The notes: generated from the sequence alone by a model not told the origin. Positions 33,125 through 34,020 are shown, numbered from the whole stretch's first letter. The stretch is 60,159 nt of DNA, filler included, from Parachlamydiales bacterium (GCA_020051075.1; 3 parts of 3 records of this genome joined end to end with filler, not necessarily neighbours in it), one strand, 5' to 3'. Program-made: numbers and translations.

Positions 33125-33153
33125 TAAATCCTCGAAAAAGCGGAAGTTTTCTT

Positions 33154-33791
33154 CATACGCGTTAAGCTAACATAACATGCATAAATTCAGATAATAAGGA
33201 AAAACCTATCTGTTTAGAATTAGTTCTGGGGATGCATCCCCCTTATGTCGCCCTTACAGGGCACGATGGAGGGGCTGTAGTTCCAGGCTTGACGGCCTTT
33301 TGGCGCGTGTGGCTAACTTTTGGCGAGAACTTGTATCCTACTTATCCATAATGATGTGCCGCCCTTTCAGGGCTCATAAACAGGTGTGAACTGTTCCCAG
33401 GTCGTCAGGCCTTACCATTACCCATTTTTTTCAGCGCGAAGCGTTTGGAGTGCGGAAGTCCTCTTCCGCTTTATCGACGAACAGTATTGATAAGAGCTTG
33501 TGGATAGATTATAGTTAGTTTTAGGCGATAGCACGAGATGTAGGTAAGTTTGAGGGAAAGTAGGAGATACTGAGCGCTGCGCGAAGCGATAGAGAAATTC
33601 AAAAGACACGAATGTCCCCAAAATTGATCTAGAATAAAGCGAAAGAGGACTTTCGCACTCCAAACGCTTCGCGCTGAAAAAATGGGTAATGGTAAGGACT
33701 GACGGCCTGGGACAGTTCACCTATTTATGAGCCCTGTAAGGGCGGCATAATCATTTGATGTTGTTACATTTATGTTAGCTTAACGCGTATG
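33154..33791. mobile_element. non-autonomous IS4-like MITE (638 bp) carrying nested repeats
   Basis: Perfect 22-bp TIRs CATACGCGTTAAGCTAACATAA (33154-33175, 33770-33791); flanks AAGTTTTCTT / AAGTCTTTTT form a degenerate 10-bp direct repeat. Confidence 0.85.
33351..33754. repeat. large inverted repeat (about 120-bp arms) built from GCCCT..AGGGC and family A REP modules
   Basis: 33351-33473 is nearly the reverse complement of 33634-33754. Confidence 0.9.
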
Positions 33792-34020
33792 AAGTCTTTT
33801 TCCGTTTTTTCAACGCACACTGTTGGTAAAACCCTGTGAGTGGATAAAAATTAGTTTATGTATATTGAGGATTATGTGCCCAGGGTGTTTGTAACGGTCC
33901 AATATACACTGAAGGACCTCCATATTGATCGGCGGTAATGTCGATAATCCATATTTCATTTTCAAGTTAAAGAAGCGACGAGAAGCCCAAAGAGATGAAG
34001 ACAGCTCATTGCGAAGCTCA

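Follow-up and report, generated by a model that had tools for sequence, protein, structure and literature searches.

The window, the whole stretch of DNA analysed here (60,159 nucleotides, filler included), joins parts of three contigs of the Parachlamydiales genome under study, hereafter G000 (2.94 Mb, 133 contigs). The gene at 31493-33124 codes for a 543-aa protein with SAM hydroxide adenosyltransferase domains and is followed by AAAAA and then by GCGG at 33140, where a split hairpin begins, 16 nt past the stop codon and between two genes of the same strand. The left half of this hairpin (33140-33153, plus strand) consists of GCGG (33140-33143) and the 10-mer AAGTTTTCTT (33144-33153). It is followed by an inserted element of 638 bp (33154-33791, plus strand), beyond which a second 10-mer, AAGTCTTTTT (33792-33801), leads into the right half of the hairpin with its T-run, CCGTTTTTT, the whole right flank spanning 33792-33810 on the plus strand. 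The element is bounded by 22-bp terminal inverted repeats (TIRs), CATACGCGTTAAGCTAACATAA at 33154-33175 on the plus strand and its perfect reverse complement at 33770-33791 on the minus strand. A search of the window for this 22-mer with up to three mismatches allowed returned three matches, all of them exact (16849 and 33154 on the plus strand, 33770 on the minus strand), compared to a mean of 0.00 in 100 shuffles. An earlier sequence-only reading of this DNA had placed a 638-bp element with perfect 22-bp TIRs in the centre of a REP hairpin, and the sequence is as it described. The two 10-bp flanks agree at 8/10 positions when read as direct repeats and at 5/10 when read as inverted repeats; both TIRs of this copy are perfect, yet the two copies of the putative duplication differ at 2/10 positions.

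The element contains short ORFs only. Repeat searching and folding revealed an internal inverted repeat with arms at approximately 33357-33469 (plus strand) and 33639-33747 (minus strand), each arm of which has at its inner end an intact hairpin of the target family, the two being inverted with respect to each other. The first of these, GCGGAAGTCCTCTTCCGC (33452-33469), closes the first arm, carries the conserved flank of the hairpin family and folds as DNA with -8.2 kcal/mol (z -4.8), and the second, the compensatory variant GCGAAAGAGGACTTTCGC (33639-33656; -7.6 kcal/mol, z -4.5), begins the second arm. The segment between and around the two hairpins has 30-160 occurrences genome-wide, and past the TIRs the interior is unrelated to the ends of the insertion sequence (IS) described below. 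From this composition, the element is, as far as its sequence can tell, a pair of IS ends enclosing captured or nested host repeat DNA. A second copy of 551 bp, in contig C129, has its outer arms in common with the window copy but not its centre. An Rfam search of 32900-34100 returned no match at E values up to 0.1.

The same intergenic spacer contains two tandem arrays, one of a 10-bp unit, AATGGACAGA, repeated 4.8 times (34022-34069), and one of a 9-bp unit, GTCCATTTT, repeated 3.7 times (34094-34126). Similar arrays are highly abundant in one freshwater metagenome run (X1), with a summed depth of 534 at 34104-34157.

An insertion sequence and a MITE with the same ends

Searching G000 for the 22-mer with up to three mismatches returned 18 TIR ends, each of which (18/18) directly adjoins half a hairpin, always at the position ...AAG-N4-CTT|CAT. 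Exact CGGAAG-N4-CTT precedes the TIR in 14/18 ends, and the half-site is degenerate in the remaining 4/18, namely in C15 and C81 and on one side each of the copies in the window (right) and in C129 (left). The frequency of the half-site GCGGAAG-N4-CTT in G000 is 3e-5 per base. Since the flanks past approximately 150 bp are unique and mutually unrelated, the ends represent separate loci. The REP-targeted family of ISs and MITEs that had been proposed from the sequence alone is thus borne out by flanks that, at the hairpin, are anything but random.

Eleven of the 18 ends are located at 59-350 nt from the end of a contig, each continuing into one of two inner sequences, end A (C1, C3, C30, C61, C83 and C122) or end B (C16, C27, C45, C99 and C121). 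Judging from these sequences, A and B are the two termini of an autonomous IS at which the assembly broke. The six end-A and five end-B contigs imply at least six autonomous copies, and with at least 11 contig ends stopping inside it, this IS partly explains the fragmentation of the draft genome. Both orientations relative to the asymmetric repeat flank are found (four type-1 and two type-2 for end A, three and two for end B). No full-length IS is present in the G000 assembly, a translated search of the contigs having returned two terminal transposase fragments only; as the shortest G000 contig is 2605 bp long, a repeat contig of the size of the IS would have been left out.

The other 7/18 ends belong to a MITE family, represented by two complete copies (638 bp in the window and 551 bp in C129) and three solo ends (C15, C81 and C128). 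The MITE TIR is identical to the ends of the G000 IS at 22/22 positions. With the TIRs of an IS from the same genome, a small size, no transposase, the same duplication and several copies, these elements have the usual attributes of a MITE.

The window contains a second occupied hairpin, consisting of GCGG and AAGCCCTCTT (16835-16848, plus strand) and preceded by the conserved repeat flank. The TIR at 16849-16870 lies directly 3′ of GCGGAAGCCCTCTT and opens an end-A sequence (16849-16941, plus strand) that stops at 16941 with contig C122, N starting at 16942. Its inner sequence is the same as that of five other contig-end copies, among which C83 reaches the 3′ end of the transposase gene; by this sequence, the 16849 copy is the right end of a full-length IS and not a MITE. 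The sequence-only reading was right about the identical TIR, the equivalent REP position and the gap that follows, and took for a MITE what is an IS end. The interval 16942-17041, in which N runs surround TTAATTAATTAA, is a non-biological spacer with stops in six frames placed between contigs C122 and C123. The other IS end was absent from the start of C123 upon inspection, and the adjacency of the two contigs is thus unsupported.

Two of the contig ends reach the transposase gene itself. C16 extends 350 nt into end B, where the TIR is followed by 227 nt and then by the first 40-41 codons of the ORF, while C83 extends 154 nt into end A and contains the final 34 codons of the gene, the stop codon of which is separated from the outer TIR boundary by 47 nt. 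A transposase is thus linked to this TIR at both its start and its end, as the earlier reading had anticipated, and its IS4 type is read from a proxy. Used as a query, the 41-aa N-terminus retrieved P0002 (464 aa, 95% identity) and P0001 (a 176-aa fragment, 100% over the query), which are 89% identical to each other; the identity of the two G000 fragments with P0002 is 95% over the 40 N-terminal aa and 78% over the 32 C-terminal aa. The family membership of the G000 transposase is judged on P0002, which comes from another assembly and stands in for the unassembled centre of the G000 IS, and on the fragment P0001. The length of the latter, approximately 1.65-1.67 kb, is likewise an estimate, obtained as 227 + ~1395 + 47 across that unassembled centre.

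P0002 matches NF033592 ('IS4 family transposase', transpos_IS4_1) with 212.1 bits (cut-off 115) and PF01609 with 75.7 bits, and it scores far under the cut-offs of the IS1634 and IS701 models. In alignment A2, made of 11 sequences including P0002 and one 176-aa truncated fragment, D129 is invariant and D206, E342, Y335, R338 and K349 are at least 90% conserved, with the spacings D(76)D(135)E and Y(2)R(3)E(6)K. P0002 therefore displays both the D(60-110)D(100-150)E pattern of the IS4 family, at D129, D206 and E342, and its Y(2)R(3)E(6)K signature, at Y335, R338, E342 and K349. A DDE triad with these spacings and the YREK motif are the hallmarks given for the family in PMC2266710. A single ORF between short TIRs with 5′-CA ends (469-aa ORF in the autonomous relative L057, described below; C16 and C83 termini in G000) and a 10-bp duplication, within the 8-13 bp or about one helical turn of the family, complete the picture. 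Taken on these features, the G000 IS is a member of the IS4 family.

Within this family, the best named matches to P0002 are the transposases of IS231A and IS231B (approximately 29% identity over 95-97% of the length, E 2e-38), and the G000 TIR matches the IS231 end signature CAT-------AA--TAA at 8/8 conserved positions. Table 1 of PMC2266710 lists for the IS231 subgroup these same ends, the YREK motif and direct repeats of 10-12 bp. Since its ends, its 10-bp duplication and its closest named relatives all point the same way, the G000 IS looks like a distant member of the IS231 subgroup, at approximately 29% identity and in a comparison with named matches. The assignment to the IS4 family made earlier is therefore sound, with IS231 and not IS4 proper as the nearest subgroup. 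IS231A and IS231B from Bacillus thuringiensis resemble the G000 IS in their single ORF, DDE and YREK residues and 5′-CAT ends, and its 10-bp duplication and its size fall within the ranges of the subgroup, 10-12 bp for the duplication; they differ from it by an identity of only about 29%, and the target in G000 is the centre of a host repeat hairpin. The preferred site of IS231A is a GGG-N5-CCC motif in the ends of Tn4430. Target specificity of IS231 elements is reported in PMC2266710, in which cited titles also refer to MIC231, non-autonomous derivatives made of IS231 ends around unrelated DNA. According to the same source, the subgroup was in 2008 confined almost exclusively to Firmicutes, whereas the host of the G000 IS is a chlamydia.

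The target hairpin and the record of its duplication

The hairpin GCGGAAG-N4-CTTCCGC is present in G000 in 66 exact copies and in approximately 146 copies with at most one mismatch per arm, most of them with the loop TCCT; these counts include the compensatory variant GCGAAAG/CTTTCGC, in which both arms have changed together. On one side of the hairpin the repeat has a conserved flank, cgcgaagcgtttggagt, and on the other several flank subfamilies. Outside the stem the repeat has no symmetry, which allows the halves of an occupied hairpin to be distinguished. Flanks of the conserved side have pyrimidine-rich loops and the other flanks purine-rich ones, a split that direct duplication of the central 10 bp predicts. 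A repeated hairpin as the target, proposed from the sequence alone under the name REP, is retained with the refinement that the hairpin is part of a larger repeat unit including cgcgaagcgtttggagt.

In a search for an empty site, contigs of four metagenome runs were aligned to 32700-34300. One 5017-nt contig of run X5 (depth 13.5) matches 32700-33142 (34 differences) and then 33791-33982 (22 differences, 12 gaps), with no extra letters at the joint. The 648 bases skipped equal 638 + 10, and 9 letters fit either side of the joint. The flanks of this contig are approximately 92% identical to the window, which makes it the contig of a related strain. Since exactly the element plus 10 bp is missing from it, the contig is, on the alignment of this one contig from one run, an empty site with a single copy of the 10 bp. 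Runs X1, X2 and X3 contained repeat fragments and short pieces only, with no contig bridging the site, and no sequencing run held half or more of the sampled words (best share 0.15). The duplication of the central 10 bp, claimed in the sequence-only reading, accordingly has on its side both the 8/10 match of the flanks and a site lacking 638 + 10 bp, found in a relative, where that reading had advised looking.

Nine paired elements of this TIR type can be compared at both flanks. Six of them, including some with asymmetric loops, match better as direct repeats (L057, L018 and L020, 10/10 each; L013, 9/10; the window copy, 8/10; L016, 7/10). The other three match better when inverted, namely the C129 copy of G000 (6 direct, 8 inverted), L015 (6 and 10), an element with two identical ends, and L043 (8 and 10). 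The second MITE of G410, a chlamydial metagenome-assembled genome (MAG), has a hairpin half on one side only. Neither the inverted-type flanks nor this one-sided site is obtainable by simple insertion. Both may be ascribed to rearrangement between copies, by analogy with ISRm22, of which 3/9 chromosomal copies have no matching direct repeats, a condition attributed by its authors to recombination between copies (PMC1525189).

The same ends at other sites

A search for the TIR in 40 related genomes was positive in one, G013 (same family, other genus, 57% complete), in which 17 ends were found. The elements of G013 are MITEs of 392-547 bp, and 14/17 ends abut CTGC-N4-GCA (GGA in one of them), with 3/17 degenerate. 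The intact site is a different hairpin, GAGGAACTGC-N4-GCAGTTCCTC, located between runs of A and T and left intact in two copies (one in C40 and one, with a 5-nt loop, in C70) against at least 17 that are occupied. There as well the duplication comprises 3 + 4 + 3 positions around the loop, and the MITE occurs in both orientations relative to the site. The G000-type hairpin was not found in G013 (0 copies), and the G013-type core occurs once in G000, which is the control level. In G410, CTGC-N4-GCAG sites are occupied by two MITEs, 298 and 286 bp long. Since the transposase query found no autonomous copy in G410 or in the 57%-complete G013, the notion of the same transposase at a different hairpin has TIR identity as its one basis.

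Further elements of G013, at L156 and L167, have the first 17-18 TIR bases in common with the others and then diverge (…GCTAAGGG…). They occupy the same hairpin position, so more than one G013 MITE family uses these ends.

An autonomous relative of 1597 bp, L057, was found on a metagenome contig. Its protein is 53% identical to P0002, its TIR has 21/22 bases as in G000, and its own two TIRs agree at 22/22 positions. The hairpin that L057 occupies, GCGC-AAG-aggc-CTT-GCGC, adjoins the same 'actccaaacg' flank, and its central AAGAGGCCTT, which has an asymmetric loop, is duplicated with a 10/10 match. All that the four site types visibly have in common is two-fold symmetry and S|WRS-N4-SYW|S around the cuts. 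Scanning genome contigs for an 18-mer of the TIR gave 13 loci. Two single matches, L048 on the one hand and L053 on the other, the latter from a gammaproteobacterial MAG and beside an unrelated 449-aa ORF, have no partner TIR, hairpin or transposase and were rejected as chance matches, since about 17 exact 18-mer matches are expected in 596 Gb by our own arithmetic.

At greater distance, relatives of P0002 were found in 12/401 genomes across the phylum, with 28-42% identity. Clear direct repeats flank three distant relatives (L032, 10 bp; L033, 11 bp; L058, 8/10). Five others, with 39-45% identity (L059, L060, L062, L066 and, in G014, L031), have inverted-repeat flanks of 17 to more than 70 bp and no direct repeat, which could possibly reflect contigs folded back in assembly, elements nested in long palindromes or a different mode of insertion. 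Three of these five have CG beside CAT at both ends, and the left flank of L060 recurs to the right of the element. In a sister clade with the TIR CATACGCATCAGGCTAA, the non-palindromic 11-mer CCTGCATATCC flanks L030 (G098) and L033 (G372), which are from different families, and a similar sequence is present at L031. At L033 the 11-mer forms a perfect 11-bp direct repeat inside a cluster of copies of the same motif. A clade that sits at a non-palindromic 11-mer indicates that target rules differ between clades.

How the target may be chosen

We interpret the 638-bp element as a MITE of an IS231-type IS of the IS4 family, the insertion of which is aimed at the dyad centre of a repeated hairpin, and give this interpretation a probability of about 0.88. 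In such a scheme, G000 carries at least six autonomous IS copies of approximately 1.65 kb, all collapsed at contig ends, the DDE/YREK transposase of which would bind the 22-bp TIRs that the MITE has in identical form and would move the MITE in trans. The chemistry would be of the cut-and-paste type, by analogy with Tn5 and Tn10 and in line with what is established for the family. At the dyad centre of the GCGGAAG-N4-CTTCCGC stem-loop, to which insertion is directed, the cuts in the two target strands would be staggered by 10 bp, each lying 5 bp from the dyad. Repair would then duplicate the 4-nt loop together with the 3 bp of stem on each side of it, so that each flank would retain one half of the hairpin. 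For the choice of target, we favour recognition of a two-fold symmetric site by a dimeric transpososome with a weak sequence requirement, S|WRS-N4-SYW|S. Symmetric-target recognition by a dimeric transpososome is usual in the IS4 family.

The recognition step could also be of another nature, with a transposase that reads an extruded hairpin or cruciform, or a single-stranded DNA hairpin at a fork, and cuts at a fixed distance from the loop. Within each genome, the sites used are alike in sequence as well as in shape, so that sequence may well be what is read. Between genomes, two unrelated stems have the identical 22-bp TIR at their dyad centre. The first is GCGGAAG-N4-CTTCCGC, in G000, to which the GCGCAAG form of L057 is related, and the second is GAGGAACTGC-N4-GCAGTTCCTC, in G013, accompanied by CTGC-N4-GCAG in G410; G013 has no hairpin of the G000 type, and in G000 the G013-type core does not exceed the control level. 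The duplication always comprises 3+4+3 positions around a 4-nt loop and the target stems fold well as DNA, again as expected if shape were read, but the MITEs of G013 and G410 have no matching transposase found in those genomes, and the distant clade at CCTGCATATCC (L030 and L033) looks sequence-specific. In addition, IS4-family enzymes are described as preferring degenerate symmetric duplex sites in the Tn5 passage of PMC1525189. On balance, we consider recognition of structure possible but rather unlikely.

A wider version of recognition by shape, which we put forward with similar reserve, supposes that an IS231-like lineage with the identical 22-bp end targets by geometry and accepts any suitable terminator-like hairpin with a 4-nt loop, whatever its stem. 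Insertion would then fall 5 bp either side of the dyad of whichever hairpin family the host itself offers, the GCGGAAG type in G000 and the GGAACTGC type in the two others. If this were true, the enzyme would be a structure-directed DDE transposase, and the spread of the MITEs would be tied to REP-like terminators in environmental chlamydiae. The system would also provide a simple tool or model for hairpin- or cruciform-directed integration and a marker of such structures in vivo.

It may also be asked whether the hairpin halves are part of the element, as the outer portions of longer TIRs, with the hairpins of the genome being footprints or solo ends. The symmetry of AAG...CTT does lengthen the inverted repeat by the outer 3 bp (42-nt arms, 86%), yet the same TIR has different flanks in different genomes and the element, compared to the asymmetric repeat flanks, is found either way round. 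The loop reads as a direct repeat in 6/9 pairs, asymmetric loops included, and the contig of the related strain lacks only the element and 10 bp while keeping the hairpin position. Moreover, two outer ends joined would not yield the 18-bp hairpin seen 146 times. The inverted-repeat flanks of 17 to more than 70 bp in L059, L060, L062, L066 and L031 would be compatible with longer TIRs in those distant relatives; for the G000 clade, longer TIRs are disfavoured and on the whole very improbable. Near-random insertion followed by persistence only in the harmless repeats of a gene-dense genome would agree with the intergenic position of the repeats, the window site between two same-strand genes and 16 nt past a stop codon included, but it is scarcely credible because selection cannot fix the same-nucleotide junction in 18/18 ends in G000 and in 14/17 ends on another hairpin in G013, and hairpin centres are a tiny fraction of intergenic DNA.

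Insertion aimed at the dyad of a repeated hairpin, the reading that we prefer, has a precedent in ISRm22 from Sinorhizobium meliloti, an IS4-family element of subgroup IS4Sa, of which 10/10 copies in Table 2 of PMC1525189 lie inside a REP at the palindrome axis. Its conserved target arms are also noted in PMC2266710. ISRm22 resembles the G000 elements in its insertion at a palindrome axis and in having some copies without matching direct repeats, and differs from them in its 6-bp direct repeats, compared to 10 bp in G000, and in its subgroup (PMC1525189). In the passages that PMC1525189 devotes to ISRm22, no MITE derivative and no second unrelated hairpin are mentioned. According to the same paper, REP targeting is established for the IS3, IS110, IS4, IS256 and IS5 families. 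IS1397, ISKpn1 and ISPsy8 (IS3) and IS621, ISPa11, ISPpu9 and ISPpu10 (IS110) likewise have host REP palindromes as insertion sites, which for ISPsy8 means the symmetry axis of a predicted hairpin (PMC1525189). As far as the accounts of them go, these IS3 and IS110 elements differ in enzyme family and chemistry, with duplications of 2-3 bp or none and, for IS110, with an RNA-guided choice of site.

In the full-text literature, ISfinder and subscription journals being outside the scope of the search, we found no description of such an element or hairpin repeat family in chlamydiae. The novelty suspected in the sequence-only reading holds to that extent, although IS4-family REP targeting itself was already in print with ISRm22 (PMC1525189). 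The kind of system is therefore known. Its novelty lies in the host phylum, in the MITE derivative and in an unrelated hairpin that, in two other chlamydial genomes, carries the same TIR at its dyad centre; this last point hints at symmetry- or structure-guided targeting. With 18 + 17 ends, an empty site and an autonomous relative with a perfect duplication, these elements constitute a natural data set on how a DDE transposase chooses a symmetric target. For chlamydial genomics, they add, from an environmental lineage, an active-looking pair of IS and MITE and a large family of REP-like repeats.

The hairpin family itself is a candidate for a REP/REPIN-type repeat, with 146 copies, a stable stem-loop and a compensatory variant, and a weak Y1_Tnp ORF lies near two copies. 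The hairpin, here called REP, forms the centre of a larger repeat of modular build, with the conserved flank cgcgaagcgtttggagt, at least two right-flank subfamilies and two stem variants; where two units lie inverted to each other, they make up a composite element of approximately 300 bp, present in tens of copies. The weak ORF (L137, C99:893-1420) codes for 176 aa with an IS200-like Y1_Tnp match of 24.2 bits (cut-off 23). It is located beside an IS end and approximately 600 bp from the two hairpin copies (C99, ~97-140 and 275-312), and from its sequence could code for an enzyme of the RAYT type responsible for the spread of the hairpin family. C131 contains a strong Y1_Tnp match, of 150 bits. 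Finally, hairpins preceded by GGAGT (ggagtGCGG...) were seen beside or inside L043, L182 (G410), L058/L059 and L057, that is in several unrelated chlamydial assemblies, which suggests a widespread superfamily of tagged REPs in chlamydiae.
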